Shown here: piece by piece, positions 1 to 58,269 of the stretch | Layout of the letters: each line of letters starts with the position of its first letter | Numbering within the stretch: position 1 is the first letter of the stretch | IMG/VR virus record: IMGVR_UViG_3300030098_003955 | Direction: 5' to 3' (one strand) | Length of the DNA: 64,000 nt | Source of the DNA: a virus | Notes under the pieces: model-generated | What the model was told of the DNA's origin: nothing | The model's input: only the letters and a program-made list of their open reading frames with translations | Databases searched by the model: none | Position numbers and translations under genes: made by a program

Positions 1-2
1 AC

Positions 3-80
3 CACTACTCTGAAGAGCAATTTGTCAACCAGTGGTTAGACATATTTTACGAAGCATCAAAAGTAACTTTTAGAGGATAG
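3..80 (+). CDS. C-terminal fragment of an upstream gene, probably a GT-B (GT4-like) glycosyltransferase; truncated by the window edge
   Basis: Open frame HYSEEQFVNQWLDIFYEASKVTFRG* ends with TAG at 78-80, 1 nt before the next ATG. It resembles the terminal helix of GT4 enzymes. Confidence 0.55.
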   Translation, partial: HYSEEQFVNQWLDIFYEASKVTFRG

Positions 81-81
81 T

Positions 82-549
82 ATGAAAATCTATATTACTA
101 TAAAAGGAACGGCTACTAAGAGCGGCTATGTTAATATCAACCCAGTGGCAAATCAATCTGGATTTGTAAAGGCTGATGTTAGAAACTTAAATGATTTTGT
201 TTCAGACAACGAGTGCACCGAAATCTTGATTGACAACGTGCTTTCATTTTTGGAAAAGAAACAGGCGTTGCAAGCCATAGACCATTGGATCAGCAAGCTA
301 CGGCACGGCGGCAAGATAATAATTAAAGATATTGACTCGTTAGAAATTTCAAGAAATTTTGTTTCTTCTACGATAAATGACGAACAATATGACGAGCTTG
401 TTCATGGAAAATTTACCCAGCCTTGGGACGTTAAGTTAAGCTCATATACGTTAGAATCAATATCCAACCAGCTATCATCTAGAAACTTGAGACTCACAAA
501 AAAAAGAATAAGAGGATTTGACTTAGTTGTTGAAGGAACTCGCCAATGA
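82..549 (+). CDS. Class I SAM-methyltransferase-like protein with degenerate motifs
   Basis: GYVNIN...ADV...EILIDNVLSFL...W..KLRHGGKIII follows the Methyltransf_11-like pattern, but the GxG SAM loop is eroded. Confidence 0.6.
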   Translation: MKIYITIKGTATKSGYVNINPVANQSGFVKADVRNLNDFVSDNECTEILIDNVLSFLEKKQALQAIDHWISKLRHGGKIIIKDIDSLEISRNFVSSTINDEQYDELVHGKFTQPWDVKLSSYTLESISNQLSSRNLRLTKKRIRGFDLVVEGTRQ

Positions 550-1349
550 AACCAATAAAAAAACAAAAGCTGACTACAGACTGTATAGATTGTGTATTTG
601 CAGATTTTGAAGAAAATTCTCAAACAAGATGCAAAATTGGAAGAATTGAAAAATATGCAGAACAAGGCTTTAATATCAATACCGTAACCGACGAAGCGAC
701 CGAAAAAAAATACAAACAAGTTGAAGGCGCTCTTTGCTCTCTAAATAGAAATGAGGACTGGATTGAGTTTGTTGTTGGCTCAGAAGATCCTTTAGAGGTA
801 GTCTATGAAGAGGCCAAAATTGCAGTCGGTTATTTCATTGATGCCTCTGGACTCTTGTCATATTCAAAGATTAAAGAAGACGTAGAGTCCACCGTAGAAT
901 CTATGCCAGAGTTGGGCAAGAAAAGTTTTATTACCATCTTCGTAGGTAAGAATATAACGGTAAATGAGATCATAGAGTTGTCTGCGACTTGTGAATCTCT
1001 CACTGGTATCACCACTAAAGTAGTTGTTGAAAACACTGCCTTGTCTATTACTAATGTTATAGATGCCTTAGACAATTCCTTCTCTACCTTAAAAAATGGC
1101 TATCTCGTCTGTGTAAAAGCAGGAGAAAAGTTCACAATTAATCCAGAAGAAAAAATAAACAACGCAATAGTGAAAGACCTCAAGAGCGTATCATACTTTG
1201 ATTCTGATGAGACATTTTCAGGATATGCTTTTTCGACCTTTATATTCAAGAACTTAAGAGGTAATCGTGGAATTCCTATAAAAGAAAAAATTGAAGAGAT
1301 GGAAAAGCACTACAATCAAAAAGGCATTTATTCTTGGTCGGAAGTATGA
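546..1349 (+). CDS. Hypothetical protein with an N-terminal Cys cluster (CxxC...C...C)
   Basis: 267-aa ORF coupled by ATGA overlaps on both sides; CIDCVF...TRC...LC. Confidence 0.7.
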   Translation: MKPIKKQKLTTDCIDCVFADFEENSQTRCKIGRIEKYAEQGFNINTVTDEATEKKYKQVEGALCSLNRNEDWIEFVVGSEDPLEVVYEEAKIAVGYFIDASGLLSYSKIKEDVESTVESMPELGKKSFITIFVGKNITVNEIIELSATCESLTGITTKVVVENTALSITNVIDALDNSFSTLKNGYLVCVKAGEKFTINPEEKINNAIVKDLKSVSYFDSDETFSGYAFSTFIFKNLRGNRGIPIKEKIEEMEKHYNQKGIYSWSEV

Positions 1350-2152
1350 ACCCAGTAGTAACGACACTGATAGCAAACTATAACCTCTCGCAATATCTAG
1401 GAAATGCAATAGATAGCGCTTTAGAGCAAACGTACTCGGTGTACAAGAACATAATTTGCATAGTAGATGACGGATCTACCGACGGCTCTTGGGATTTGAT
1501 CACAAGCTATTTTACAGACTCTTATGCCGAGATAGTTAAAGATGAAACCGAAGAGGGCGGTCTTCTTATTATAAGAGAAGACAACACAGGGCCTTATGGC
1601 TACACGACCTTGATTGCAATCAAATGCGAAAATGGCGGGCCTAGTAGGGCGAGAAACATCGGCATTGACTACACCATCGACGAAACTGATATCTACGCAA
1701 TATTAGACGCTGATGACTGGATGAAATCATCAAAGATAAACACATGTGTATCTGTGCTGAAAAAAAGCCCAATGATAGGAGCTGTCTATGCAGACTATGA
1801 CACGATTAATACTGAGACGGGTAAGGTCATACGAGAATACAAAGAGCCTTACAGTCGTGATAAATTAGTTAGAGAATGTATTGTTCATAGTGGTTCTTTG
1901 ATAACAAAACAAGCCTTGGTCAACACCAAAGAAGAAACTGGATACTATGATGAGACTATGAGGACTTGTGAAGACTACGACTTATGGATGAGGATAAGTG
2001 AAAAGTACATAATTGGGCATGTACCTTTAGCACTTACAAATGTAAGAGTCACTGGACTGAATTCTAGTTTTACGGTAGACCAGTCTGTTTGGGGAAGAAA
2101 TTGGAAACGGGTAGTAGAAAAAGCACAGCAGAGAGCAAATGGCCAGCAATAG
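1346..2152 (+). CDS. Family 2 glycosyltransferase (GT-A)
   Basis: IANYN...AIDSALEQTY, IVDDGSTDGS, GPSRARNIGI, LDADD (DxD), CEDYDLWMRI. Start moved to the ATG at 1346, which overlaps the upstream stop. Confidence 0.93.
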   Translation: MNPVVTTLIANYNLSQYLGNAIDSALEQTYSVYKNIICIVDDGSTDGSWDLITSYFTDSYAEIVKDETEEGGLLIIREDNTGPYGYTTLIAIKCENGGPSRARNIGIDYTIDETDIYAILDADDWMKSSKINTCVSVLKKSPMIGAVYADYDTINTETGKVIREYKEPYSRDKLVRECIVHSGSLITKQALVNTKEETGYYDETMRTCEDYDLWMRISEKYIIGHVPLALTNVRVTGLNSSFTVDQSVWGRNWKRVVEKAQQRANGQQ

Positions 2153-2858
2153 GTTTACTACCCAAATAAAAAACAATCATCCGGGATTGAATCCAGAAAA
2201 GCCACTTACGGTAATAATACCTATAGCTGGTATTGGCAACCGCATGAAGTCATATGGCCCAAAGTGTCTTTTAGAAGTTCCTAAGAAAAACAAAAGCATA
2301 ATAGAAGAAATAATAGCGTCAATCAAAAATATATACCCTTATTCAGACATAATTGTTTGTGTCGGATTTGAGGCAGATAAGGTCATAAAGTCGTTACTGG
2401 GCAAGGTTAGGATAGTAGAGAACAAAGATTACGACGAGACGAATATAACCGAGTCCATAAGACTATGCATGAATGTTTGCATGACCGATCACGTCATGAT
2501 AGTATACGGAGATCTCATATTTAGCCCATCCGCGATCAGCGAAATAACAAAGCACGGATCTTGCGCTCTAGTAGATAGTAAACTAAGATTTAAGGAGAGC
2601 GAGATAGGGGTTAATGTAGTTGACAAAAAGATAACTAACTTTGCCTATGGGCTAGACACGAAATGGGCACACATAATATTTTTAGAAAATGAAGAACTAA
2701 AATTTTTCAAAAAGCAGTGTGTCGAAAAAAGAAAATCAAAGCTTTATCCATTTGAAATTTTCAACAAGATACTAGACAAGGGTCTTACAATAAATGCGAT
2801 AGAGCCTAGAAATATGCGAATCAAAGAGATCGACTCTTCTAGGGACTTATTTGAATGA
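2139..2858 (+). CDS. Nucleotidyltransferase (LicC / NTP_transferase-like sugar- or phosphocholine-phosphate nucleotidyltransferase)
   Basis: IIPIAGIGNRM...PKCLL, VYGDL, C-terminal EIDSSRDL. Confidence 0.85.
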   Translation: MASNRFTTQIKNNHPGLNPEKPLTVIIPIAGIGNRMKSYGPKCLLEVPKKNKSIIEEIIASIKNIYPYSDIIVCVGFEADKVIKSLLGKVRIVENKDYDETNITESIRLCMNVCMTDHVMIVYGDLIFSPSAISEITKHGSCALVDSKLRFKESEIGVNVVDKKITNFAYGLDTKWAHIIFLENEELKFFKKQCVEKRKSKLYPFEIFNKILDKGLTINAIEPRNMRIKEIDSSRDLFE

Positions 2859-3886
2859 GAGTGATGATACAGAGTGATGGGCCTCATGCTCATTACTATA
2901 TAAGAATGGGATGGGCAAAGGTCTTTTCTGCAATCGGGTGGAATGTAAGCCTGTGGGAAAAGGATGGCAAGTCTGCCTTTGATGCGTTCGATGAGTTTGA
3001 ACCTACTGTATTTATGGGTCAAACTTACAATCTCAGCGATGCAATCATTAAGTGTATAAAAGAAAGACCTCACATGAAGGTCGTTATGAGAGCTTCTGAT
3101 TGGGGACAACTCAACGAGTCTATAGATAGAGAAAAATATCCTATTCTCAAGGCTAGTGAAGATGAAATAAGGCTAGTAGACAGACTTAAAAGACAAACCG
3201 GCAAGCCTGACTTTGTTCACAATCACTACACCCAAAAGTGGATAGAAGAGACTCATGGTCACTGGAGAGAGATAGGGGTAGAGCCTGTCTCACTCATACA
3301 TGGGGCGGATGTTTATGATTACTATAATGGCTCCTTTGATGAGCACCTAGCATCTGACGTAGCCTTTGTTGGTGGCTACTGGCCCTATAAAGCCAAGTCA
3401 TTAGATAAATATATGCTACCCATATGTGATGAAGACCTGAATGTAAAAATATTTGGAAACAACTGGCCTACACCAAAAGGATTAGGCAGGCTTTCAAACG
3501 AGAGAGTTAAAGACCTTTTCTTCTCTAGCGTTGTTTGCCCAAACGTAAGCGAGCCGCACTCACAAGACTTCGGGTATGACATTATAGAAAGACCGTTCAA
3601 GGTTTTACTGAGCAAAGGTTTTTGCATATCGGATCGAGTTCAATCTATGGAAGAAGAAGTCTTTCCTGACCAGATTGTTTATGCGGACAATCCACAAGAC
3701 TTCAAAGAAAAAATACACCACTTTGTTAAGAACCCCGAAGAAAGACAAAAGTACATCCAAAAAGGCTTTCTTGAGGTCTTGACTAAGCATACTTATTTTC
3801 ATAGAGTGTCTTTCATACTAGAAAAATTAGGATTCAAAAAAGAATCCGAGCAATGTCTTTCCATTCTAAGGGATATCATTTCATGA
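2855..3886 (+). CDS. GT-B glycosyltransferase, CgeB / Glyco_trans_1_2-like
   Basis: DVAFVGG, VKIFGNNW, ERPFKVLLSKGFCISD, KHTYFHRV C-terminal motif. Confidence 0.85.
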   Translation: MRVMIQSDGPHAHYYIRMGWAKVFSAIGWNVSLWEKDGKSAFDAFDEFEPTVFMGQTYNLSDAIIKCIKERPHMKVVMRASDWGQLNESIDREKYPILKASEDEIRLVDRLKRQTGKPDFVHNHYTQKWIEETHGHWREIGVEPVSLIHGADVYDYYNGSFDEHLASDVAFVGGYWPYKAKSLDKYMLPICDEDLNVKIFGNNWPTPKGLGRLSNERVKDLFFSSVVCPNVSEPHSQDFGYDIIERPFKVLLSKGFCISDRVQSMEEEVFPDQIVYADNPQDFKEKIHHFVKNPEERQKYIQKGFLEVLTKHTYFHRVSFILEKLGFKKESEQCLSILRDIIS

Positions 3887-4845
3887 GAGCCTTAATTACA
3901 GGTGCCTCTGGGTTTATAGGCAGAAACCTTCTTAAAAGATTACTTCTTCTCGAAAATCAATTTGAAGAAATAATCACGGTAACTAGGACTCCTTTTATTA
4001 TCCCAAACAAGAAGGTGAAAAACTTTGCGTGCGATCTTGGCGATTCTAAAAAATTTGGAATTAAAGACCCTGCTTACGCAGCTATAGCGATAGAGAAGCC
4101 AGACGTAATTTTTCATCTGGCTAGTAAGCCTGTAGTAAAGTTTGAGGACGGAGAAAATCCTTTCAAGATTGTAGACAACAACATCACGTCAACTTATAAG
4201 GTGTGTGAATATGCGCCAAAAGGATCTCGTGTCGTTATGGCGTCGTCGGTTATTGTCTACGGCGATTGGATGTTTGACGAAGATCAAAAAGACCTACTAT
4301 CTCCTCTCGTACCATACTCAGAGGAAGACAAGACCAAGCCAACATCTATTTATGGCATGACAAAAAGAGCATCAGAGAGCATACTAGATGTATATAACGA
4401 GCTAGGGATTAGCTGCGCCTCTGCGAGATTATGTGCTACAGTTGGAGAAGGTCTTACGCACGGAGTCATAAAAGACTTTATCAGAAAGCTGAATACTGAT
4501 AGTGATATGCTGGATGTGCTGGGTGACGCTCCGGGATCTACAAAGCCTTACCTACATATTGACGATGCCCTTTCTGCTCTAATCAAAATATCGCAAACAA
4601 CAGGAAATGAACACTACAATGTATGCCCTGATGACCAGATCAACATAGCAGATGTAGCAGATGCAGTCATGATAGGAACAGACATTCATAAGCCACTAAA
4701 CTGGCTTGGTGAGGGTGCGAACTGGAAGGGTGATAATAGAATAATCACAGTTTCAAATAAGAAGCTTAGATCCATAGGATGGGAGCCTAAGTTTCCTAAA
4801 TCTAAAGAAGTTATTATCGACATAGTAAGAAAGATTGGTGGATAA
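3883..4845 (+). CDS. NAD-dependent epimerase/dehydratase (extended SDR, UDP-glucose 4-epimerase-like)
   Basis: ITGASGFIG, IFHLAS, ASSVIVYG, YGMTK (YxxxK). Start moved to the ATG at 3883 (ATGA overlap). Confidence 0.9.
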   Translation: MRALITGASGFIGRNLLKRLLLLENQFEEIITVTRTPFIIPNKKVKNFACDLGDSKKFGIKDPAYAAIAIEKPDVIFHLASKPVVKFEDGENPFKIVDNNITSTYKVCEYAPKGSRVVMASSVIVYGDWMFDEDQKDLLSPLVPYSEEDKTKPTSIYGMTKRASESILDVYNELGISCASARLCATVGEGLTHGVIKDFIRKLNTDSDMLDVLGDAPGSTKPYLHIDDALSALIKISQTTGNEHYNVCPDDQINIADVADAVMIGTDIHKPLNWLGEGANWKGDNRIITVSNKKLRSIGWEPKFPKSKEVIIDIVRKIGG

Positions 4846-5523
4846 ATGGAAGGCTGGAGACAAGCTTTAGCGCAAATAGAATACGCCGAGCATACAGATG
4901 TTTATGAGTTTGGTGTCTTTACAGGAAAGTCTATCAAGTATATAAATGATGCACTTTCGCATGTTGGCAAAGATATTAGAAAAATATTTGGCTTTGATTC
5001 TTTTTGCGGACTCCCAAAAGAAACAGAAGACGAGAGAGATGAAGTCATCTCAGAGGTTGGTATATATCAGTGGAGAGAGGGCGACTTTGATTCACAAAGA
5101 CATTTTGGCGTTAGTGGAGTAGACAAAGTAATAGATTCTGTCAACTCATTTGTAAGAGAGTCTGTTCCTGAAAGTGTTGACATTGAATGGATTGCTGGGT
5201 TTTATTCTGACTCTTTGCAGGACAACATAGTCAAAGAACTGGACATGCAGCCAGCTTCTTATGTTGATCTAGATGCAGACCTATACCTATCAACAATAGA
5301 AGCTCTAGACTTTATGTTTAGAAATGGTTTGATACAGAAGGGAACTGTCATTGGATATGACGATTGGGGAGGAACTCCAAGATGGAACACACAAGAAGAT
5401 GGGGCTAGCAAAGCGCATGTAGAGATGTGTGAAAAATACAACGTAGACATGCAGCTTTTGGCAAAAATGGGAGACTCCTATCCTCACGTACAAACACTCT
5501 TCTTGGTGGACTCAATTGGCTGA
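4846..5523 (+). CDS. TylF/MycF-like sugar O-methyltransferase
   Basis: YEFGVFTGKS, FGFDSFCGLP, DLDADLYLST, GTVIGYDDW. Confidence 0.85.
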   Translation: MEGWRQALAQIEYAEHTDVYEFGVFTGKSIKYINDALSHVGKDIRKIFGFDSFCGLPKETEDERDEVISEVGIYQWREGDFDSQRHFGVSGVDKVIDSVNSFVRESVPESVDIEWIAGFYSDSLQDNIVKELDMQPASYVDLDADLYLSTIEALDFMFRNGLIQKGTVIGYDDWGGTPRWNTQEDGASKAHVEMCEKYNVDMQLLAKMGDSYPHVQTLFLVDSIG

Positions 5524-5654
5524 TGACAACAACAGAACGAATGATAATAATAATAGAACATAGAGACTCATTGCTCATGGTAACTGGTTCTCATCTTCTT
5601 ACTTTTGGTATATCAATGCTGTTGTTTTCTTTTTGCTGTAAAGACAGGGCATAA
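5523..5654 (+). CDS. Small 43-aa hydrophobic protein (absent from the ORF track)
   Basis: TGATG coupling to the upstream stop. MTTTERMIIIIEHRDSLLMVTGSHLLTFGISMLLFSFCCKDRA* fills the gap exactly up to the next gene. Confidence 0.5.
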   Translation: MTTTERMIIIIEHRDSLLMVTGSHLLTFGISMLLFSFCCKDRA

Positions 5655-6344
5655 GTGATGATAACTGACTTTTACGATAAAGCTCACTGTTTGGTTCTTG
5701 ATAAGAGATATCAAGAATTTACAGAAACATCGTTGAAAGAATTGAGATCTGTCTCCATAGAGCCGGAGCTATTCATAGCTGGGGATGGCAGTCACGATCT
5801 AACATACAATCATATAGACACAAAAGATTTGCCTAAAGTTATAGATGGAACTACAGGATATCCAACTTGGTTGAGAAGACCAAACCCATACAATGCTTGG
5901 CTATGCCATAAAAAAATGTTTGAATCGTTCCTGAAGAGTAGAGGGGAAAATCTACTTTTGCTAGAGGACGACGTTAAAATAGAAGATGACTTCCTAGAAG
6001 TATTTGGAAAAGCAGAAGAATTTTTTCAGAACAACGACTGGGACATGATTTACTTAGGTTGTTATGTCAATGACAGGAACCCAGTAGAGCCAACTAGCAA
6101 CGAACATGTCTACCGTGTAAAGGGCAGTGGTGGATTTCATGGTGTTATCATAAATAAAAGGGTTTTATCGTTATTAAACAGGTTTAATCCAATCGGGCCG
6201 TTTGACTGGATAACAGGTCAATTTATACATAAGCAAGATTGGGCGAATTGTTTTGCGATTAACCCTTGCATAATTAGCCAAAAGTCGGGATACTCATATG
6301 TAGAGGATGGTGTTCTAGACAAACCAAGCAGGTACATTGCATGA
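5655..6344 (+). CDS. Family 25-like glycosyltransferase
   Basis: AWLCHKKM, LLLLEDDV, WDMIYLG, PFDW motifs. The start is either GTG 5655 or ATG 5658. Confidence 0.82.
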   Translation: MMITDFYDKAHCLVLDKRYQEFTETSLKELRSVSIEPELFIAGDGSHDLTYNHIDTKDLPKVIDGTTGYPTWLRRPNPYNAWLCHKKMFESFLKSRGENLLLLEDDVKIEDDFLEVFGKAEEFFQNNDWDMIYLGCYVNDRNPVEPTSNEHVYRVKGSGGFHGVIINKRVLSLLNRFNPIGPFDWITGQFIHKQDWANCFAINPCIISQKSGYSYVEDGVLDKPSRYIA

Positions 6345-7327
6345 AGATATACGCGGTAACAGAAGACTCAAAGCCATTTGTAAGCTTGTCCACAGGTAAA
6401 GCCTTTAGCAACCTTTCAAGCTATTACGATTGCGAAGTACAAGTTAAAGACTTTAACTACTGGCGGAACAGAGAAATAGATTCTGACTCTGGTAACGATG
6501 TGGTAGTAATATTTGAGTCTGTATATCTCGAACTAGCTGGAATGAGCACTAGGGACTTGAGAGAGTACTACCCTAATGCCAAATTTGTAGCTATGGGAAG
6601 TGACACAATCTACTATCTAGTGACTAACAAGAACAATGGCTATCAATTTGATAGTCCGTTTGAGGTTGACTTGTTCTTGGAAAAGATGGAAGACTGCATA
6701 GATCAATATAGAGCTAGAGGGATCAATGTAGACCATTGGATGTGGACAGCCTCTGACTGGCTATTAGATTATGTCCAGAAGTTTGATGAGGGCAAGAAGT
6801 TTGAAGAGAAAGAAAATGACTTCATAGGATTGTATGCACCACATACTATTCAAAGACCTAACTCCTATAGAAACAAGATGGTAAACTTTCTAGCCAGTAA
6901 AGGCAAGAAGTTTACTCAAGGAGGTGGCAGTGGGCACGACGATCCAGATGTTGACAAAATATTCCAACAGTACGCAAACAGCAAATTCACACTTGGAACC
7001 ACCTCTCATGATAACCCATTGTTTCACGGAATGAAGGGGTTTAGAGACTGGATTGGGCCGCATATGGGTTCCATGCTGATATATGATGATTATCCAGATA
7101 TCAGAAAGCACTTTCAAGGCGGCGAACTTGTACCGTTATATGAGTATGGAGTCTTTGAGGGAATATTGGCAATTCATGACCACTATTCGCAAAATACGAA
7201 CCAGTACTATGAAGTTATAGAGCACCAAAAAGCTTGGGCTCTAGACAACACAATAGAAAAACAATTAGTAAAATTATTTACTAAGCATGGGATCATAGAT
7301 GAAAGTTTTATTTCACAGCCTAGTTGA
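6341..7327 (+). CDS. Putative GT-B-like glycosyltransferase / hypothetical protein
   Basis: 328-aa coupled ORF. The C-half (YRNKMVNFL...QYANSKFTLG...KGFRDW...MLIYDD) resembles Glyco_trans_1_2. Confidence 0.55.
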   Translation: MKIYAVTEDSKPFVSLSTGKAFSNLSSYYDCEVQVKDFNYWRNREIDSDSGNDVVVIFESVYLELAGMSTRDLREYYPNAKFVAMGSDTIYYLVTNKNNGYQFDSPFEVDLFLEKMEDCIDQYRARGINVDHWMWTASDWLLDYVQKFDEGKKFEEKENDFIGLYAPHTIQRPNSYRNKMVNFLASKGKKFTQGGGSGHDDPDVDKIFQQYANSKFTLGTTSHDNPLFHGMKGFRDWIGPHMGSMLIYDDYPDIRKHFQGGELVPLYEYGVFEGILAIHDHYSQNTNQYYEVIEHQKAWALDNTIEKQLVKLFTKHGIIDESFISQPS

Positions 7328-8324
7328 TTACGAAGATCTTCCTGAGTACGGTCACAGACTAGACTACTTGGCTGATTCTGTCTTTCATGGGTTTAGGGAT
7401 CTTCTTGGAGAAGATGCTGTTGATTACCCAAAGATGGAACACATGTACAAGGAGAACTTTTCTCTTGTAAAGACAGACAAGTGCAAGGGCTTTAGTCTGT
7501 ACAATAGACTGGATGATATACCAGTTGATAGAGAAGACATTGAGCAAAAGATAAGAAACAACTACTTTGACATTGTTGTAGTTGCAATACATCACAGCTA
7601 CCTGTCAAATAGAGAAGCTGTAATAAGAATAATTGGCGAGATAGAACATCTAAACCCTCACCAAAAAATAGCTTTGCTCGACGGCAATGACTCACAAGGT
7701 GATGACCATGAGCTGTTTGGCTTAGCTCGATACTACAAACGAGAGATGAAGGGTGCGAATAGACACCTATGTCTTCCAATAGCTTTTTCGATACCAGAGT
7801 CTGTAGTGGTTGACGAAGTGCCGGAGAAGACAAAAGACTTTGCCACTATTGTACCATCCTTCATGAGGCATCCTCATTGGGCTACTTATGTCTTTGATGA
7901 AGAAGAGAAATACTTTGCAGACTATGAAAATAGTTTTTATGGATTTACTTGCAAGAAAGGCGGATGGGATTGTCTACGCCATTACGAGATATTAGCGCGT
8001 GGATGTGTTCCTTTCTTTACAGATCTAGAGCAATGCCCAGACCTAACCTTATTTAACTTTCCTAAAAATCTAACAATATTAGGTAAACAAATCCAAGGAC
8101 TAGAGCCTTGCCTTGTAGATGGTTCTAAGTATGATCCAAATCATAGCTTTATAGGTACTTGCATGAATTCATTATGCACCTATAATCACAAGATAAATCA
8201 CTCTGTCTTTAATAAAGACATGTATTACGAAATAGCAAACGAGCTATTAGATTACACTAGATCAAAATTGACAACTAAGTATATTGCAAAATATATTATC
8301 GAAACGATAAAAATTGGAGTTTAA
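7299..8324 (+). CDS. Putative glycosyltransferase (GT-B-like)
   Basis: DYLADSVFHG, LLDGND, YYKRE, SFYGFTCKKGGWDCLRHYEILARGCVPFF. Confidence 0.65.
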   Translation: MKVLFHSLVDYEDLPEYGHRLDYLADSVFHGFRDLLGEDAVDYPKMEHMYKENFSLVKTDKCKGFSLYNRLDDIPVDREDIEQKIRNNYFDIVVVAIHHSYLSNREAVIRIIGEIEHLNPHQKIALLDGNDSQGDDHELFGLARYYKREMKGANRHLCLPIAFSIPESVVVDEVPEKTKDFATIVPSFMRHPHWATYVFDEEEKYFADYENSFYGFTCKKGGWDCLRHYEILARGCVPFFTDLEQCPDLTLFNFPKNLTILGKQIQGLEPCLVDGSKYDPNHSFIGTCMNSLCTYNHKINHSVFNKDMYYEIANELLDYTRSKLTTKYIAKYIIETIKIGV

Positions 8325-8325
8325 T

Positions 8326-9261
8326 ATGGCTAAAGTTTTAGTTACTGGTGGCGGCGGATATGTAGGAAATGTTCTTTGCAGACATTTGCTAGACAATGGA
8401 CATCAAGTAAAGTGCATTGATAATTTTCACAAGGGTCAATGTGATGCGATTATTCCATTAGCTACAAATCCAAACTTTGAGTTTGAGTATGGGGACGTTA
8501 CTATACTAGACCAGATGAAGGAGGCTGTTCATGGGTGTGATGCTATTATTCACCTTGCTGCTATTGTTGGCTTTCCGGCTTGCAAATCCCAACCCGCTTT
8601 GGCGACGGCGGTAAACGTAGAAGGCACTAGAAATATGCTTTTTGCAAGAGAAGCCTATAATCCAAAAATGCCGTTTGTCTATGCTTCTACAGGAAGCGTG
8701 TATGGCAAAGTTGAAGACTTATGTACGGAAGAGTCTCCACTGAACGCTGTGTCGCTATACGGCGTGAATAAGCGCGTTGCAGAGGAAATGGTGGCCACTC
8801 AGGAGAACACGGTTTCATTTCGCTTCGCAACTGGGTTTGGTGTTAGCCCATGTATGCGGGTCAACCTGCTTGTGAACGACTTTGTGTATCAGGCTATTAC
8901 GAATCGTATACTGACTATTTTTCAGGCAGATTTTAGACGCACATTTATCCATGTCCGTGACATGGCAAAGGCCTTTACTATGGGCTTTGAAAATATGAAT
9001 AATTGGAAACATAAAGTTTATAACTGTGGAGCAAACCATCTCAACTGGACTAAGAGAGAGCTTGCAGAGTATGTAAAAGAGCAGACTGGTTGCTTTGTCC
9101 ATTACGAAGAGATTGGCACAGACGCAGACCAAAGAGACTACGAAGTAAGCTATGACAAGCTAGAGAACGAAGGTTTTGTTTGTGATGTTGACATGAAGAC
9201 CGGAATTCAAGAACTAATCAAGGTAGCACCATTACTACAAATCAGACATCAGTACGCATAA
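8326..9261 (+). CDS. NAD-dependent epimerase/dehydratase (extended SDR)
   Basis: VTGGGGYVG, HLAAIVG, YASTGSVYG, YGVNK, RTFIHVRD. A GGAG RBS precedes the ATG at 8326. Confidence 0.92.
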   Translation: MAKVLVTGGGGYVGNVLCRHLLDNGHQVKCIDNFHKGQCDAIIPLATNPNFEFEYGDVTILDQMKEAVHGCDAIIHLAAIVGFPACKSQPALATAVNVEGTRNMLFAREAYNPKMPFVYASTGSVYGKVEDLCTEESPLNAVSLYGVNKRVAEEMVATQENTVSFRFATGFGVSPCMRVNLLVNDFVYQAITNRILTIFQADFRRTFIHVRDMAKAFTMGFENMNNWKHKVYNCGANHLNWTKRELAEYVKEQTGCFVHYEEIGTDADQRDYEVSYDKLENEGFVCDVDMKTGIQELIKVAPLLQIRHQYA

Positions 9262-9262
9262 A

Positions 9263-9892
9263 ATGAAAAGCACATCTGAAATAGGTTGGTTTCCTTTCGA
9301 CGGTAAACCTCATCATTATAATAATATACAAGGTTGGTTCAGCTTTCCGGCTGTTTATGACGAGATAGTAGAATCTTTTGACAACGCTACTTTTGTAGAA
9401 ATAGGCTGCTGGCTTGGAAAATCAACTTGCTATATGGCAGAAGCTATATCTCTAAGTCGCAAGAATATAGATTTCTACTGTGTTGACACTTGGGAAGGGA
9501 CTCCAGATGAACCAGCACACGCCTCAATGATAGAGAGCTTAGGTGGAGATATCTATTCCGTGTTTAACAATAACATGGCCTCTGCTGGCGTAAGTCATAT
9601 TGTCAAGCCTATGAAAATGACTTCAATAGAAGCCTCTACCAAATTTGAAGACAACTCCTTAGACTTTATCTTCATAGACGGTGGTCATACATACGAAGAT
9701 GTTAACAATGACATAGCTCACTGGCTACCAAAACTTAAAGATGGTGGCCGAATTGCAGGTCATGATTATTATGAATGGTCTAATGAAGAAGTTCATGATG
9801 GAGTGAAGAAGGCGGTAGCCAACTTTTTTACTAGAGAAGAAATAGAATTAAAAGCAGATTGCTGGATAACAAAACCAGATTGGAGAAAATAA
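9263..9892 (+). CDS. Class I SAM-dependent methyltransferase (Methyltransf_24-like)
   Basis: VEIGCWLGKST, VDTWEG, DFIFIDGGHTYE, GGRIAGHDY. Confidence 0.9.
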   Translation: MKSTSEIGWFPFDGKPHHYNNIQGWFSFPAVYDEIVESFDNATFVEIGCWLGKSTCYMAEAISLSRKNIDFYCVDTWEGTPDEPAHASMIESLGGDIYSVFNNNMASAGVSHIVKPMKMTSIEASTKFEDNSLDFIFIDGGHTYEDVNNDIAHWLPKLKDGGRIAGHDYYEWSNEEVHDGVKKAVANFFTREEIELKADCWITKPDWRK

Positions 9893-10842
9893 TGCAGCTA
9901 GAAGGCAAAAAAGTATTAGTCACTGGAGGAGAAGGCTTTTTAGGAAAAGCTATATGCCTGAACTTAGAGACTAAAGGTGCAGAAGTAATTGTGTTAAAAC
10001 ACAGCGAAGTTGACCTGTGTAACTTAGCAGATACGCTTGTGTTTGTTGACAGTGTGAAGCCTGACTATTGTATACATGCCGCTGGTCACAACGGAGGCAT
10101 TGAGTTTAACAGGATGTATCCTGCTGACATTCTCTATGCCAATACTGTGATGGGCTTGAATATACACAACGCCTGCACATTCTCTGGCGTTAAAAAGATA
10201 GTTTCAATCATGACATCTTGCGCATATCCTGACACTGGTATGGAAGTTCTGGAAGAAGACACTTTCTGGAATGGGCTTCCTAATAAAACAATTAGAGCTC
10301 ATGGTATAGCTAAGAGAATCTTGCAAACAGCTTCTGAGGCTTATAAAGACCAGTATGATTTAGACGCAGTAACTGTTTGCATTACTAATCTATATGGGCC
10401 ATACGACACATTTAACCTCGTCAGAACTAAGGTTGTAGGAGCTTTGATTAGGAAATTTGTAGAGGCGGTCATAGAAGAAAAAGATACGGTTGAGTGCTGG
10501 GGTACAGGAGCTCCTATGAGAGAGTTCATGTATGTAGCCGATGCGGCAGAAGCTGTGGTTCAATCATTACAAAATTACAATGATGAAACAAAGCCTCTAA
10601 ACATAGGAACCGGCAAAGACATATCAATTAAGGAATTAGTTGAAGGTATTGTTGAAGTCACTGGTTATAAAGGCGAAGTGTTCTGGAACACAGACAAACC
10701 TGACGGACAACTCAAAAAGCTTTTAAGCACCGAAAGAATGAAAGAGTTTGTAGAGCTAGAACCTACAGACTTCAAAGATGGCTTAAAGCAAACTATTAAT
10801 TGGTACACAGAGAATAAGCAAGAAGCTGATGCAAAACACTAA
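9892..10842 (+). CDS. fcl: GDP-L-fucose synthase family epimerase/reductase with an atypical active site
   Basis: VTGGEGFLG, IHAAGHNGGI, TSCAYP, TNLYGP, WGTGAPMREFMYV.D, NIGTG, DKPDGQ. The family is clear, but catalytic positions differ (see findings). GGAG RBS and TAATG coupling at 9892. Confidence 0.8.
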   Translation: MQLEGKKVLVTGGEGFLGKAICLNLETKGAEVIVLKHSEVDLCNLADTLVFVDSVKPDYCIHAAGHNGGIEFNRMYPADILYANTVMGLNIHNACTFSGVKKIVSIMTSCAYPDTGMEVLEEDTFWNGLPNKTIRAHGIAKRILQTASEAYKDQYDLDAVTVCITNLYGPYDTFNLVRTKVVGALIRKFVEAVIEEKDTVECWGTGAPMREFMYVADAAEAVVQSLQNYNDETKPLNIGTGKDISIKELVEGIVEVTGYKGEVFWNTDKPDGQLKKLLSTERMKEFVELEPTDFKDGLKQTINWYTENKQEADAKH

Positions 10843-11311
10843 AAAGATTGGTATAATAGTAAGAGATCTTAGTCCTAGTTACTTATCTTTCTGCTTGATT
10901 GACATGATTAATAAGCAGGTTGAAGAAACTCCAGACTATGACTTCACCATATTTTACGAAAACAGGTATCCTAACTCTCTTGACGTGTTGTGTTCTACAA
11001 TGTCGTCTAGTGAGATATGGAACTTTGATGGGGTATTAATATCAACAGATATTTCCACAACGCTTTCGTCGTTAAATTCGTCGAGTGTTCGTAGAAGGCT
11101 GTTCTATGTTTGGGACTTAGAATGGACTAGGCAGGAAGGTAAAGACTACGACTACGTAAGCAAGGCTTACAACCACAAAGAAGTTGAATTAGTTTCTAGA
11201 TCTGTAGATCACTCTCCTCTTTTAGAAAACTATTCAAACAAGAAGGTTAGCGGAGTCGTTAATGATTTTTCTTTCAAAGATCTAAAGGAGATTTTAGATG
11301 GACAGCAATAG
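10829..11311 (+). CDS. Hypothetical protein resembling a glycosyltransferase N-terminal half
   Basis: 160-aa coupled ORF. DGVLISTD..T...RRLFYVWDLEW resembles GT4/WsaF N-domain motifs. Confidence 0.55.
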   Translation: MQNTKKIGIIVRDLSPSYLSFCLIDMINKQVEETPDYDFTIFYENRYPNSLDVLCSTMSSSEIWNFDGVLISTDISTTLSSLNSSSVRRRLFYVWDLEWTRQEGKDYDYVSKAYNHKEVELVSRSVDHSPLLENYSNKKVSGVVNDFSFKDLKEILDGQQ

Positions 11312-12092
11312 CGAATTTATTAAGAAGCACGGAAATGCAATCAGCAAGATGTACCTAAAAGAAAGCAAGAGTACCTATGAGATTGCTCAAGAATTCAACA
11401 CATACCCAAACAAAATCAGAAGGACTCTCAAGACTCTTGGTGTGTCTCTCAGGGACAAAAGTAAGGCTCAAACCGTAGCTATTAAGAATGGTAGGCATGA
11501 GCATCCTACGAGAGGGAAAAAGAGGTCTGAGTCCGAGAAGATTGCGATTAGCAATGGTATGTCAAAGTTTTGGAACGACATGGAAGAAGAGGAGAGGGCT
11601 AGAAGATGTGAGATTTCTAGAAAGCAGTGGGCATCAATGTCGGACGAACAAAGAGAGCTTCTTAGAAAGTCTGCCACTGAAGCTGTTCTGAAAGCCAGTA
11701 AAGAAGGATCTAAGATAGAAAAATATATCTACAAGGGCTTGACCGCAGAAGGATATGAGGTTATCTTCCATAAAAAGAACTTGGTGTCTGATAGAAAACT
11801 TGAAGTTGACCTGTTCTTGCCGACCCTGAATCTTGCAATAGAAATTGATGGGCCTGCTCACTTTCTGCCTATATGGGGAGAAGAAAAATTGCAAAAGCAC
11901 ATAAATGCAGATGCTAGGAAAGCAGGTTTGTTATTGCAATCAGGGTTTGTATTAATAAGGCTTAAGAACATCACTAAGAATGTTTCCAAAGCCAACATGG
12001 CGAAGAGCCTTGGTGCTGTCGTCGAAGAAGTTAAGAAGGTGGAAAACAAGTTTCCGCCCAAATCCAAAAGACTTATTGAGATTGAAGTTTAA
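11298..12092 (+). CDS. Vsr / DUF559 / EDxHD-type endonuclease with N-terminal HTH and NUMOD3-like repeats (homing-endonuclease-like)
   Basis: MYLKE.KSTYEIAQEF...IRRTL (HTH); RGKKRSESEKIAIS (NUMOD3-like); EVDLFLP..NLAIEIDGPAH...D.RK...GFVLIRL. Confidence 0.8.
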   Translation: MDSNSEFIKKHGNAISKMYLKESKSTYEIAQEFNTYPNKIRRTLKTLGVSLRDKSKAQTVAIKNGRHEHPTRGKKRSESEKIAISNGMSKFWNDMEEEERARRCEISRKQWASMSDEQRELLRKSATEAVLKASKEGSKIEKYIYKGLTAEGYEVIFHKKNLVSDRKLEVDLFLPTLNLAIEIDGPAHFLPIWGEEKLQKHINADARKAGLLLQSGFVLIRLKNITKNVSKANMAKSLGAVVEEVKKVENKFPPKSKRLIEIEV

Positions 12093-13015
12093 TGAAGAAT
12101 TACGAAGACTGTACAGTTAAAGAACTGAAGCAAATTTTGAATGAACATAATTACTCCTGTCCTTCAGGAGCAAAGAAGGAGGATTTAGTAGGAATGGTCA
12201 AGGAACTTATGGAAGTAGATGGACTATCGGAAGAAGTAGAGGAAATCTTGGAAGGCGTAACCGAAAAGATCGAGAACATAGAAGAAAAGCTGGAAGAAAA
12301 GGTTAACGATGATTCTAGACCTTCAATGCACTCGCCAGAATGGAATGATTACGTCATGTCTCATTTTGAGCCACACGAGTTGGTCGATGGAAATCCAATT
12401 TGTGCAGGATTAAGAAGAGTCGCTGAAAAGCTTTTAGGAACGATTGTCGAATCTGGGCCGGATCAAGTATTTCCAGCTACAGAAGGAGACGGTCCGGGAA
12501 GAGCTACTGTAGTATTCAAAGTAGTTTTTAGCTGGATGGATACAGGAATGATGAAAGTCTTCAAGGAAGTAGCAGATGTGTGGCATGGTAATACTGATGA
12601 TTTGTTCTGCGCTCATCCTGTCGCTACTGCTAGCACGAGGGCTGAAGGGAGAGCTTTGAGAAAGGCTCTTAAAATAAGATGCTTAGCCGCTGAAGAATTG
12701 GCACGTAAAGACATCGCTGAGATTGTCAGGAGTGCGGTAACAGGATCTCAGGCGGTTAAGTTTGGAGATACTTCCAACTTAGGACAGGAAGGCAAGATTA
12801 CAACACAGCAGGTTCAGTATTTAGACAACGTATGTCTACAACTGGATATCAACGCATTCTCGTACATCAATTCGGGAGAACGAGAATACGACGCTGTTGC
12901 GGACATCCCGAAGGAAAAAGCTAAGCTGATTATCCGTAAGATTAATCAGTACAAAAATAACAAAGACCTAATCCCTGATGGTATTAAGGGATATGACCCT
13001 AACTGGAGAAATTGA
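12092..13015 (+). CDS. Rad52/Sak-like single-strand annealing protein with an N-terminal HeH/SAP-like DNA-binding domain
   Basis: TVKELKQIL...GAKKEDLV (HeH/SAP); GLRRVAEKLLG...RATVVFKV...ATASTRAEGRALRKAL; C-terminal ITTQQVQYL...AKLII. Confidence 0.65.
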   Translation: MKNYEDCTVKELKQILNEHNYSCPSGAKKEDLVGMVKELMEVDGLSEEVEEILEGVTEKIENIEEKLEEKVNDDSRPSMHSPEWNDYVMSHFEPHELVDGNPICAGLRRVAEKLLGTIVESGPDQVFPATEGDGPGRATVVFKVVFSWMDTGMMKVFKEVADVWHGNTDDLFCAHPVATASTRAEGRALRKALKIRCLAAEELARKDIAEIVRSAVTGSQAVKFGDTSNLGQEGKITTQQVQYLDNVCLQLDINAFSYINSGEREYDAVADIPKEKAKLIIRKINQYKNNKDLIPDGIKGYDPNWRN

Positions 13016-13350
13016 TGAAGATCACTTACAGTACCCCCAATAAGAGAATTACAGTTGAAATCGAGGCTGAAAGCCAAAGAGAGGCCTTTGCCGAGCTCGC
13101 AAACTTCCAAGAGGTATTTGACAATACTGAATGTGGAAAATGCGGCAGCGATAACGTTGTGTTCTGTACTAGAACTGTGGACGACAACCTCTACTATGAA
13201 TTGAGATGTCGTGACTGCGGAGCTAAGCTAAGCTTTGGTGTTATGAAGAAGGGCGGTAGGCTCTTTCCTAAGCGCAAGGACAAGGATGGTAAATGGCTTC
13301 CAGACAATGGATGGGTCAAGTGGAATGCTGAAACCCAACGCGAGGAATAA
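13015..13350 (+). CDS. Zinc-ribbon protein
   Basis: CGKCGS...CRDCGA; TGATG coupling and GGAG RBS. Confidence 0.75.
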   Translation: MKITYSTPNKRITVEIEAESQREAFAELANFQEVFDNTECGKCGSDNVVFCTRTVDDNLYYELRCRDCGAKLSFGVMKKGGRLFPKRKDKDGKWLPDNGWVKWNAETQREE

Positions 13351-13435: not shown

Positions 13436-13463
13436 AAAAAAACGCCCTGCGAACAGGGCGTTT
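13436..13463 (-). terminator. Rho-independent terminator of the structural operon
   Basis: Minus strand CGCCCTG-TTCG-CAGGGCG-TTTTTTT (UUCG tetraloop), 10 nt after the last gene. Confidence 0.9.
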
Positions 13464-56971: not shown

Positions 56972-57289
56972 TTATATGTTTCTGTAAACTTTGAATGTGT
57001 GAACGTCCGTAAAAAAAGTACCGTCTGTGATCTGAACCTTGCCTTGTAGCTTATATGTACCAGACTCATCTAAGTCATTTGCTACTGTTGTGTATTCCAT
57101 AACTCCATCAGTGCCGTCAGTTGTAAAAGATGCATTCTTCTCTAACTTATCACCAGATGGTTTTTTGATAATTACCTGCTTAGTACCAGCCGACACAGCG
57201 CTAGATATATTAACGGCACTACTACCGTCTTTTACTGTCAGCTTAAATTTAGTGCCGATATCATTTTCATGTATTTCGTTAGCTGCCAT
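56972..57289 (-). CDS. BppU N-terminal-like (Ig-like) virion protein
   Basis: DIGTKFKLTVKDG...VNIS...IKKPSG...DG.MEY....DLDESGTYKLQ...F.V. Confidence 0.7.
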   Translation of the reverse strand: MAANEIHENDIGTKFKLTVKDGSSAVNISSAVSAGTKQVIIKKPSGDKLEKNASFTTDGTDGVMEYTTVANDLDESGTYKLQGKVQITDGTFFTDVHTFKVYRNI

Positions 57290-58269
57290 TATCTCTCCCT
57301 CGTTAGTGTTTTTTCTATTTGTTTGTCTATATATGAATCAACACCGGATTGCTTGTCTATGTAACTACTAATAGCCAATGATTTGTCGATAAACCCATCC
57401 ATGCTCTTAGTCTTTGAAATGTAACTTGTAAAAGACTCTTCCTTGTTTAAAAATAGTGTGAAACTAACAATGTCTGGATTGTCCAGAGGATTCGTTAGTC
57501 TGGGTTGTAGGTAAATGTTTCCTACTATTGATGAAAAGCCTCCATTATATAATACACCGATAGATGATATATTTGCCGAAGTTGTAGGATTTGAAGACCC
57601 ACTAACCAGAGGCGTTCCAGTTCCAGAGGTGCTGGCCGAAGAAGAAAACGAACCTAATCCAGATATGTTTAGTTTCGGGATTGGTGACAAAGAGGCAGAT
57701 GAAGAGTTACTAGCCTTCGCACCCAATATCAAGAAAGGGGTTGAGGTCATAGAGGCGCTGGACGAACTTGAAGAGCTAGCCGATAAGTTCAAAAAACCAG
57801 TAATTGAAGTGCTTGCAGAAGCAGAAAAAGAACTGGAAGAAACAATGTTCAAAAATGGACTTGCGGCTACTGACCCAGAAGCAGACTTGGAAGCTAGTCC
57901 AAACAATACCCTAGTGCCAATCGCAGCTACAGAGCCTGAAGAACTACTAGAAGACTTTCCAGATATGTCTAAACTTGGTGTTGGGGAAACAGATCCAGAA
58001 GATGAAGCAGAAATAAATCCTGCTAGTTTCATCTCAGCTACAGACTGAACTGTAGCGTTTGAAGAAGCCTCAAACGTAGCAAAGAAATTCAACACAGCAG
58101 ATGCAGAAGTGCTAGAAGAACAAGACTGCGAATGTTCTACGTTGAATATTAAAAATGGACTAGATGCAATAGATCCAGACGAAGAAACAGAAGACGATCC
58201 TTCTATCGTAACGCCAACTCTTGGTATTGAGGAGATAGGATTTTCACTAATTGCATTAAAACCAAGCAT
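57289..58269 (-). CDS. Serine-rich repeat virion protein (20-aa and 10-aa periodic)
   Basis: About 28% Ser by hand count; MLGFNAISENPIS N-terminus; AGGAG RBS; promoter motif upstream. Confidence 0.8.
   Translation of the reverse strand: MLGFNAISENPISSIPRVGVTIEGSSSVSSSGSIASSPFLIFNVEHSQSCSSSTSASAVLNFFATFEASSNATVQSVAEMKLAGFISASSSGSVSPTPSLDISGKSSSSSSGSVAAIGTRVLFGLASKSASGSVAASPFLNIVSSSSFSASASTSITGFLNLSASSSSSSSASMTSTPFLILGAKASNSSSASLSPIPKLNISGLGSFSSSASTSGTGTPLVSGSSNPTTSANISSIGVLYNGGFSSIVGNIYLQPRLTNPLDNPDIVSFTLFLNKEESFTSYISKTKSMDGFIDKSLAISSYIDKQSGVDSYIDKQIEKTLTRER

Follow-up and report, generated by a model that had tools for sequence, protein, structure and literature searches.

Soluble glycan synthesis genes in an uncultured marine tailed phage form a large island with a conserved viral core and a variable arm, possibly serving virion glycosylation

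According to our analysis, the first 11,311 nucleotides of the window (the whole 64,000-nucleotide stretch of IMG/VR virus record IMGVR_UViG_3300030098_003955 analysed here) belong to a phage-encoded glycan synthesis island of about 22 genes and 16.7 kb, for which decoration of the phage's own virion proteins is, tentatively, the best explanation. The island encodes nine glycosyltransferase (GT)-like proteins, three short-chain dehydrogenases/reductases (SDRs), one nucleotidyltransferase, and three methyltransferase-like proteins, together with an aminotransferase/formyltransferase/acetyltransferase trio (DegT, formyltransferase, and GNAT). An earlier note on this DNA had described about 16 coupled genes with 5 to 6 GTs, three SDRs, a nucleotidyltransferase, and 2 to 3 methyltransferases. 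The enzyme types hold and the gene block is confirmed as real, but it is larger than first described. Gene content, solubility, viral context, the division into core and variable parts, purifying selection, and the lack of export genes are all shown by the analysis.

Positions 1 to 11311 contain 14 complete open reading frames (ORFs) on the plus strand as well as the final 80 bases of one more. Twelve of the 13 ORF junctions overlap or abut, and the sole gap spans positions 5524 to 5654 (131 bases). The island starts at window position -5390, i.e., 5.4 kb ahead of the window; this upstream part was read from IMG/VR contig L011, which is near-identical to the window (window coordinate = L011 coordinate - 7146). 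Nine genes, encoding GT4a, GT4b, GT4c, a 155-amino-acid protein, a 267-amino-acid protein, a GT2, the nucleotidyltransferase, a GT-B, and SDR1, constitute a conserved core. The upstream and core genes are as follows:

Before the window (L011), plus strand: six genes, in order a GT4 of 544 amino acids, a short DegT aminotransferase, a formyltransferase, a GNAT protein, a GT4 of 372 amino acids, and a third GT4
L011:1756-3390, before the window, plus strand: GT4a, 544 amino acids, the hallmark first enzyme, with an invariant EX7E motif
1..80, plus strand: 3' end of the third GT4 (337 amino acids; entire gene at L011:6213-7226)
82..549, plus strand: class I methyltransferase-like core protein of 155 amino acids, recognised by eye
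546..1349, plus strand: core protein of 267 amino acids, with an N-terminal domain containing four invariant Cys residues and a predicted GT-A/nucleotide-diphospho-sugar-transferase fold
1334..2152, plus strand: soluble GT2 glycosyltransferase of 272 amino acids (PF00535, E 4.9e-17), with DxDD conserved in all relatives
2139..2858, plus strand: sugar-phosphate nucleotidyltransferase, MobA/GlmU/IspD-like (PF12804 [NTP_transf_3], E 1e-9; partial NCBIfam matches)
2855..3886, plus strand: GT-B of the CgeB/Glyco_trans_1_2 type (PF13524, E 2.6e-18)
3853..4845, plus strand: SDR1, extended SDR nucleotide-sugar epimerase/reductase, the last core gene (PF01370, E 5e-29)

The block had been described as fully soluble, which agrees with our hydropathy check of the island proteins: none has a membrane segment, the highest 19-residue Kyte-Doolittle mean being 1.49. 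All nine GT-like proteins are acidic (isoelectric point, 4.7 to 6.0); peripheral enzymes acting on lipid-linked acceptors are typically basic. When we searched four related records, one of which is 163.6 kb long and 100% complete according to CheckV, we found neither initiating transferases of the WbaP or WecA type (PF02397, PF00953) nor members of the Wzx, Wzy, and ABC-2 exporter families (PF01943, PF04932, PF01061), and the positive controls matched; the reported lack of a flippase, polymerase, ABC exporter, and initiating phosphotransferase is thus corroborated. The island likewise does not show the membrane set of gtrABC cassettes (GtrA, GtrB, and a type-specific Gtr), since it encodes no hydrophobic segment and its GT2 is a soluble protein of the length given above. 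Among the starters of protein glycosylation, GT41 was not detected in the relatives, and the search for Maf/MptE-like proteins in the same relatives returned a single sub-threshold match (E 1.5e-5), in G005, just past its variable arm. In G005, the record of locus L017, a homologue of PAP2 lipid phosphatases (E 1.3e-13) also lies at a distance of about 30 kb from the island; the places of the PAP2 homologue and the MptE/Maf-like match are 17494-17769 and 67643-67921.

The surroundings of the island are viral, in agreement with the claim that it is phage encoded. Immediately upstream, and translationally coupled to it on L011, are the C-terminal half of a split phage DnaE, SSB, and a sigma-70-region-2 protein, and downstream lies a tail operon. 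A host lipopolysaccharide (LPS) or capsule locus upstream was what the earlier note had named as speaking against its reading; since the genes found there are the phage DnaE, SSB, and sigma factor genes, that objection does not arise. Nor do the relatives point to a host chromosome, as they are located on viral contigs of up to ~177-185 kb. Two features follow the island:

11298..13350, plus strand: three conserved non-glycan genes ending the transcription unit (HNH/homing-endonuclease-like, HeH-domain, and small protein)
13440..13463: strong two-way terminator-like hairpin (10-bp stem and T-run) separating the island unit from the convergent tail operon

The island unit therefore does face a virion operon, as had been noted, with the hairpin between the two. 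The further statement that it runs into phage recombination genes is not sustained, a recombination role being unconfirmed for the HNH/homing-endonuclease-like gene, the HeH-domain gene, and the small gene, whose zinc-ribbon matches are weak and sub-threshold. Megablast of window positions 1-12000 against cultured phages gave no close DNA relative.

To place the island in its lineage, we compared 30 further, diverged IMG/VR marine phage loci by tblastn and clustering. Their 5' part, consisting of the DnaE C-terminal half, SSB, the sigma factor, and then the nine-gene core through SDR1, is conserved in nearly all loci, and the core GTs are 51-67% identical versus 35-42% for the neighbouring DnaE C-terminal half. 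The 3' arm is variable, different clades having alternative cassettes: that of one clade comprises an FkbM methyltransferase, a GT8, a GT2, a GT29-like sialyltransferase, NeuB, a CMP-sugar synthetase, and a GT4, whereas a second clade combines a HAD-nucleotidyltransferase fusion with an FtsJ-like methyltransferase and a sugar C-methyltransferase. None of the 30 diverged loci yielded the DegT/formyltransferase/GNAT trio or the 328-amino-acid GT (6341-7327). Between relatives, fourfold-degenerate sites are near saturation while the proteins are conserved, which indicates purifying selection on the island genes; the catalytic motifs of GT2 (DxDD), the nucleotidyltransferase, SDR1, SDR2, and GT4a (EX7E) are intact.

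The relatives of GT4a argue for an old virus-specific function rather than a recently captured host gene set. There are 2450 metagenomic relatives at E <= 1e-5, and the best 120 of these are 52-99% identical, carry no informative name, and lie on contigs of up to 177 kb. Among 185,579 prokaryote species, each represented by one genome, GT4a is present on only six contigs of metagenome-assembled genomes (MAGs), from five unrelated phyla; with so many metagenomic relatives and so few MAG contigs, it does not appear to be a recent host-derived gene. The contigs in question, L048 to L053, are binned in MAGs labelled Flavobacteriales, Verrucomicrobiales, SAR202, Roseovarius, and Paceibacteria, and probably represent phage DNA mis-binned into bacterial genomes. 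The AlphaFold2 model of GT4a (predicted local distance difference test [pLDDT] 87) has as its best solved match the chlorovirus NY-2A protein B736L (3OY2; E 2.6e-18, template modelling [TM] score 0.79), with MshA and BshA trailing by four orders of magnitude. B736L binds GDP-mannose (PMC9614988). In the comparison with viral models, an uncultured tailed-phage protein and unnamed BFVD entries rank highest, and giant-virus GT4s appear from rank 6. GT4a also has a four-Cys insertion in its C-terminal Rossmann domain, with residues 267, 270, 285, and 288 invariant, and a helical C-terminal extension of ~110 residues. In tblastn searches against cultured phages, the GT-B proteins encoded at 2855-3886 and 7299-8324 had no match, and the third GT4 and the GT2 had weak generic matches only.

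The remaining core genes encode both canonical enzymes and less usual proteins. The 155-amino-acid protein (82-549) has no Pfam, PHROG, or NCBIfam match and is kept in most relatives at 30-48% identity; its S-adenosylmethionine-binding motif I is, by motif comparison, degenerate in every relative, and it may therefore be a non-catalytic partner. The 267-amino-acid protein is the fastest-evolving core gene product (19-29% identity) and is without a DxD motif. Its AlphaFold2 model, built on an alignment of 20 relatives, reaches pLDDT 90 and gives GT-A matches in Foldseek (TM 0.4-0.47) and in VIA-align (Z 11-13.7, residues 88-267), whereas profile searches of this family and of a 341-amino-acid island family against PDB sequences yielded nothing significant. 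These two neighbouring genes (82-549 and 546-1349) thus look enzyme-like without the usual catalytic motifs, yet are kept in nearly all relatives. The nucleotidyltransferase has an intact AGxGxRMKSYGPK signature in the window; in L026 to L030, the clade with NeuB and CMP-sugar synthetase, the AGxGxR signature of the core nucleotidyltransferase (~9318-10004) is lost. The GT-B at 2855-3886 has 31 relatives with 49-59% identity. SDR1, which probably starts at 3883, has its YxxxK motif intact and matches archaeal and bacterial epimerases in the PDB at ~1e-30.

In the window phage, the 3' arm consists of a TylF methyltransferase, a GT25, two CgeB-like GTs, SDR2, a Methyltransf_24 protein, SDR3, and a 160-amino-acid protein, as listed here:

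4846..5523, plus strand: TylF-like sugar O-methyltransferase (PF05711, E 1.7e-9)
5523-5551: promoter-like site in the sole intergenic gap, ahead of the GT25 gene
5655..6344, plus strand: GT25-family glycosyltransferase (PF01755)
6341..7327, plus strand: CgeB-like GT-B of 328 amino acids (ESM Atlas structure, TM 0.70-0.75 to Glyco_trans_1_2 clusters)
7299..8324, plus strand: GT-B, Glyco_trans_1_2/RXYLT1_C/GT47-like (ESM Atlas structure and alignment of 10 relatives)
8314..9261, plus strand: SDR2 (E 3e-71 and ~48% identity over the full length to PDB 6VO6/6VO8; YxxxK intact)
9263..9892, plus strand: Methyltransf_24 O-methyltransferase between SDR2 and SDR3 (PF13578, E 6e-26)
9859..10842, plus strand: SDR3, GDP-L-fucose-synthase-like (NF047922, E 8.8e-76, below cut-off; PDB GDP-fucose synthases at 1e-51 to 1e-57)
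10829..11311, plus strand: 160-amino-acid protein of no known family, which co-travels with the SDR2-SDR3 pair

The window copy of the GT25 matches PF01755 at E 0.0023 and 18.2 bits, under the 24-bit cut-off; all ten members of the GT25 family examined match it (best E 1.7e-10), and the assignment is solid at the family level. The proteins encoded at 6341-7327 and 7299-8324 have no Pfam match, and their ESM Atlas models superpose on CgeB/Glyco_trans_1_2 GT-B clusters (TM 0.71-0.82) that are mostly viral. PHROGs gave no match for the family-less island ORFs, nor for most of the tail ORFs.

SDR2 is the most constrained gene of the island, reaching 94% identity in phages that share 50-67% identity in their other proteins. 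Recent transfer was considered as the main cause and rejected, given that fourfold-degenerate sites are only 53-60% identical; purifying selection therefore explains most of the likeness. The best 120 relatives of SDR2 gave no clue to the host, all being unnamed metagenomic proteins on contigs of at most 185 kb. PDB entries 6VO6/6VO8 probably represent Campylobacter jejuni Cj1427, a GDP-D-glycero-D-manno-heptose C4-dehydrogenase. SDR3, which probably starts at 9892, has HxxxK in place of YxxxK in 13 of 13 cassette-bearing sequences, the window's included, down to relatives of 44-49% identity, and is always accompanied by SDR2 with its intact YxxxK. The two might form a two-protein epimerase in which SDR2 oxidises and then re-reduces C4. 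The Methyltransf_24 gene occupies the same place in the window and in L029, with weak similarity elsewhere.

In our proposal, the island works as an assembly line for glycans that is ancestral, specific to viruses, and independent of any membrane component of its own. Its enzymes would make several unusual activated sugars, O-methylated residues among them. The composition of the DegT/formyltransferase/GNAT trio suggests an N-formyl or N-acetyl amino sugar as its product, and the SDR2/SDR3 pair would yield a heptose- or fucose-like L-sugar; the pair and the intervening methyltransferase probably make a methylated, L-configured heptose or 6-deoxyhexose. The nine soluble GT-like proteins would then link the sugars stepwise in the cytoplasm, with the nine-gene core building an inner glycan common to the lineage and the swappable 3' arm adding strain-specific outer sugars. 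The most likely acceptor would be a virion protein of the phage itself, or several of them, and the particles would accordingly be released sugar-coated. In this scheme, we infer the identities of the sugars and, above all, that of the acceptor.

What favours a virion acceptor is the viral ancestry and the fixed core, the acidic and soluble nature of the GT-like proteins, a candidate substrate in the virion module, and the layout of core and variable arm, which parallels that of chlorovirus capsid glycans. The candidate, put forward as such only, is the following:

57289..58269, minus strand: Ser/Thr/Ala-rich repeat protein of 326 amino acids in the virion module, 34% Ser+Thr, with poly-Ser runs

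The ends of this family are conserved, with MLGFxxISExP at the N terminus and repeated YIDK motifs ending in RER at the C terminus, and in between ~25-residue repeats vary in number, the proteins ranging from 326 to 451 amino acids. In two further loci (L058:4932-6287 and L059:3513-4868), the same virion slot encodes 451-amino-acid members of the family with 32% and 25% Ser+Thr, respectively. With more reserve, we consider it possible that a very abundant, uncultured lineage of large marine tailed phages universally coats its virions with a two-tier glycan, its core built by nine ancient viral genes and its strain-specific outer sugars, which would be heptose- or fucose-like, nonulosonic acid, or C-methyl or N-formyl amino sugars, by swappable cassettes.

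Several points weigh against glycosylation of the virion. In G003, the complete relative, no member of the repeat family was found and the slot encodes an unrelated protein with 26% Ser+Thr, and neither the window nor G003 has a general poly-Ser/Thr tag or C-terminal poly-Ser/Thr tails. Poly-Ser/Thr runs of G003 considered as tags were discarded, as all lie in non-coding frames, and collagen-like repeats, sought as a target of the GT25, were found in neither the window nor G003. The island is translationally coupled to DnaE, SSB, and the sigma factor and not to virion genes, which fits DNA or host targets equally. The distant homologues of GT4a in cultured phages occur in three differing settings (in the head module of S-CBS4, upstream of the terminase genes and with other sugar genes in TJE1, and beside the primase in S-EIVl), so that genomic context is inconsistent. 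The PAP2 homologue of G005 has to be counted here, and B736L itself is without a proven acceptor (PMC9614988). Finally, the case for a virion glycan is inferred from sequence throughout.

The serious rival, to which we give somewhat lower odds, is remodelling of the host surface, where peripheral enzymes at the inner membrane face would extend lipid A-core of the lipooligosaccharide (LOS) type or undecaprenyl-linked intermediates, with export by host MsbA/Lpt or Wzx/ABC systems; the altered surface of the infected cell could serve, e.g., to block superinfection or to keep progeny from sticking to debris. The LOS-type route was overlooked in the earlier note. It needs no membrane gene in the island, as LOS-type assembly is independent of a flippase, polymerase, or initiating transferase in the locus, and the absence of such genes therefore does not exclude a host-surface target. 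The GT25 family is best known from LOS galactosyltransferases, the sets of NeuB, CMP-sugar synthetase, and sialyltransferase-like genes in relatives recall LOS loci, and SDR2 resembles a capsule heptose enzyme; the early or middle position of the operon and the PAP2 homologue of one relative would fit as well. GT clusters of the cyanomyoviruses P-SSM2, S-SCSM1, and S-SCSM2R have been read in this way in the literature, without experiments (PMC12801897). Against this stand the core itself, which appears anciently viral, more conserved than the adjoining replication genes, and almost without cellular relatives, as host-derived auxiliary genes usually are not, and the acidity of every GT-like protein. 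Moreover, the island proteins matched no Kdo-transferase or heptosyltransferase family, and a fixed nine-gene core would demand a host acceptor conserved in every host of a very diverse phage lineage.

It is improbable that the island makes another kind of product, such as a free or protein-primed cytoplasmic methylated polysaccharide (like the mycobacterial polysaccharides MMP and MGLP), a sugar-modified small molecule, or a glycan carried by a non-structural protein of phage or host. Soluble GT4s and methyltransferases without export genes would also suit polymethylated polysaccharide pathways, GT4a has a methylmannose polysaccharide mannosyltransferase among its fold matches, and antibiotic sugar pathways likewise include TylF-like, DegT, and formyltransferase genes. 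Such products, however, would bring no evident benefit to a lytic phage, the strain-variable outer arm suggests an exposed, selected surface, and the island is without scaffold-forming or polyketide genes. Hypermodification of DNA with sugars against restriction, as in T-even phages and newer 5-hydroxymethylcytosine-glycan systems, is very improbable: the island does share an operon with DnaE and SSB, and phage DNA GTs can have the GT-A or GT-B fold (bioRxiv 10.1101/2023.12.21.572611), but the four related records contain no Tet/JBP dioxygenase (a search whose control matched nowhere) and as their sole thymidylate-synthase homologue a canonical ThyA (230 bits versus a cut-off of 108), which makes DNA an unlikely target, as the earlier note had judged, and no DNA glycan is known to us that would call for nearly as much as nine GT-like proteins together with modules for nonulosonic acid, heptose-like sugars, amino sugars, and methylation.

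Glycosylation of virion proteins, the explanation we prefer, has precedents, as autonomous virus-encoded glycosylation is already known in chloroviruses, mimiviruses, and a few mycobacteriophages. Like the island, the N-glycosylation system of chlorovirus capsids (PBCV-1 A064R, A111/114R, and A075L; NY-2A B736L/PBCV-1 A546L) employs soluble virus-encoded GTs and sugar methyltransferases. In the chlorovirus capsid glycans, the core is conserved and the outer part differs between viruses (PMC9614988), a division that matches the core/variable gene layout of the island. The chloroviruses differ in being eukaryotic giant viruses with scattered genes, as opposed to one operon in a tailed phage, and B736L, the best solved structure match of GT4a, is only 17% identical to it.

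Among tailed phages, the mycobacteriophages Che8, Corndog, and Myrna (Freeman et al. 2023, via PMC12619734) encode their own soluble GTs, as does the phage described here. These enzymes modify structural proteins while still in the cytoplasm; each system comprises two or three GT genes next to structural genes, and the targets are the C-terminal tails of capsid and tail-tube subunits (PMC12619734). Compared with the systems so described, the island has nine GT-like genes and nucleotide-sugar pathways, is located in a replication operon, and is accompanied by no C-terminal Ser/Thr tails that we could find. Five island proteins searched by tblastn had no mycobacteriophage match.

Large GT clusters have also been listed in marine cyanomyoviruses and "moraphages" (PMC12801897, PMC12619734). 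The clusters labelled "LPS/cell-wall synthesis and modification" in P-SSM2, S-SCSM1, and S-SCSM2R likewise belong to lytic marine phages and contain many GTs (13 in S-SCSM2R) and NDP-sugar epimerases, but these phages are of a different lineage and the genes are described as host-like and variable (PMC12801897), whereas the core is fixed here and has almost no cellular relatives. A cellular counterpart of the SDR2-SDR3 pair is the capsular heptose modification of C. jejuni, which proceeds via the Cj1427 dehydrogenase, a C3/C5 epimerase, and a C4 reductase (PMC10680097). As with the C4 reductases there, a GDP-fucose-synthase-like protein, SDR3, follows SDR2; in the island, an O-methyltransferase gene stands between them, and SDR3 resembles true GDP-fucose synthases more closely than it does the C. 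jejuni reductases, with the catalytic Tyr replaced by His. We saw neither GDP-heptose synthesis genes in the island nor a match of its proteins to a cupin-type epimerase family.

Of the island proteins, three belong to the CgeB/Glyco_trans_1_2 type. In the Bacillus spore crust, soluble CgeB/YkvP-type GT-B enzymes and Sps sugar pathways are thought to decorate a protein shell assembled in the cytoplasm, without a lipid carrier or flippase. The homology is at the family level only, the spore crust is a cellular system, and the acceptors are unrelated.

What is new is the uncultured, very abundant lineage, the size and two-tier architecture of the island as documented across ~30 relatives, and its virus-specific core. 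Experimental proof for tailed phages is, so far as the literature we found shows, limited to mycobacteriophages; if the proposal is true, bacterial viruses would have in the island a counterpart to the glycosylation of chloroviruses and mimiviruses and, within the same literature, the first such case outside mycobacteriophages. Confirmation would link phage and giant-virus glycosylation, and since GT4a has thousands of relatives in ocean metagenomes, a virion glycan would then concern a large share of marine viral particles. Sugar coats on virions alter sticking to hosts, mucus, and marine particles, recognition by grazers and immune systems, and particle survival. The swappable arm would moreover be a natural library of soluble rare-sugar enzymes. 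If the host surface is the target, lytic marine phages would rebuild the envelope of the infected cell, as has long been suspected for the "LPS genes" of cyanophages.

Three other proteins of the tail and virion modules deserve mention. The 829-amino-acid tail-region protein encoded at 37890-40379 (minus strand) has a concanavalin-A-like lectin/glucanase domain (Laminin_G_3, E 1.8e-10). The 460-amino-acid virion-module protein at 61337-62719 (minus strand) contains Asn-rich repeated motifs that by eye resemble the right-handed beta-helix of polysaccharide-degrading tailspikes. In G003, a 386-amino-acid virion-module protein (140528-141688, minus strand) has a run of ten glycines near its C terminus.

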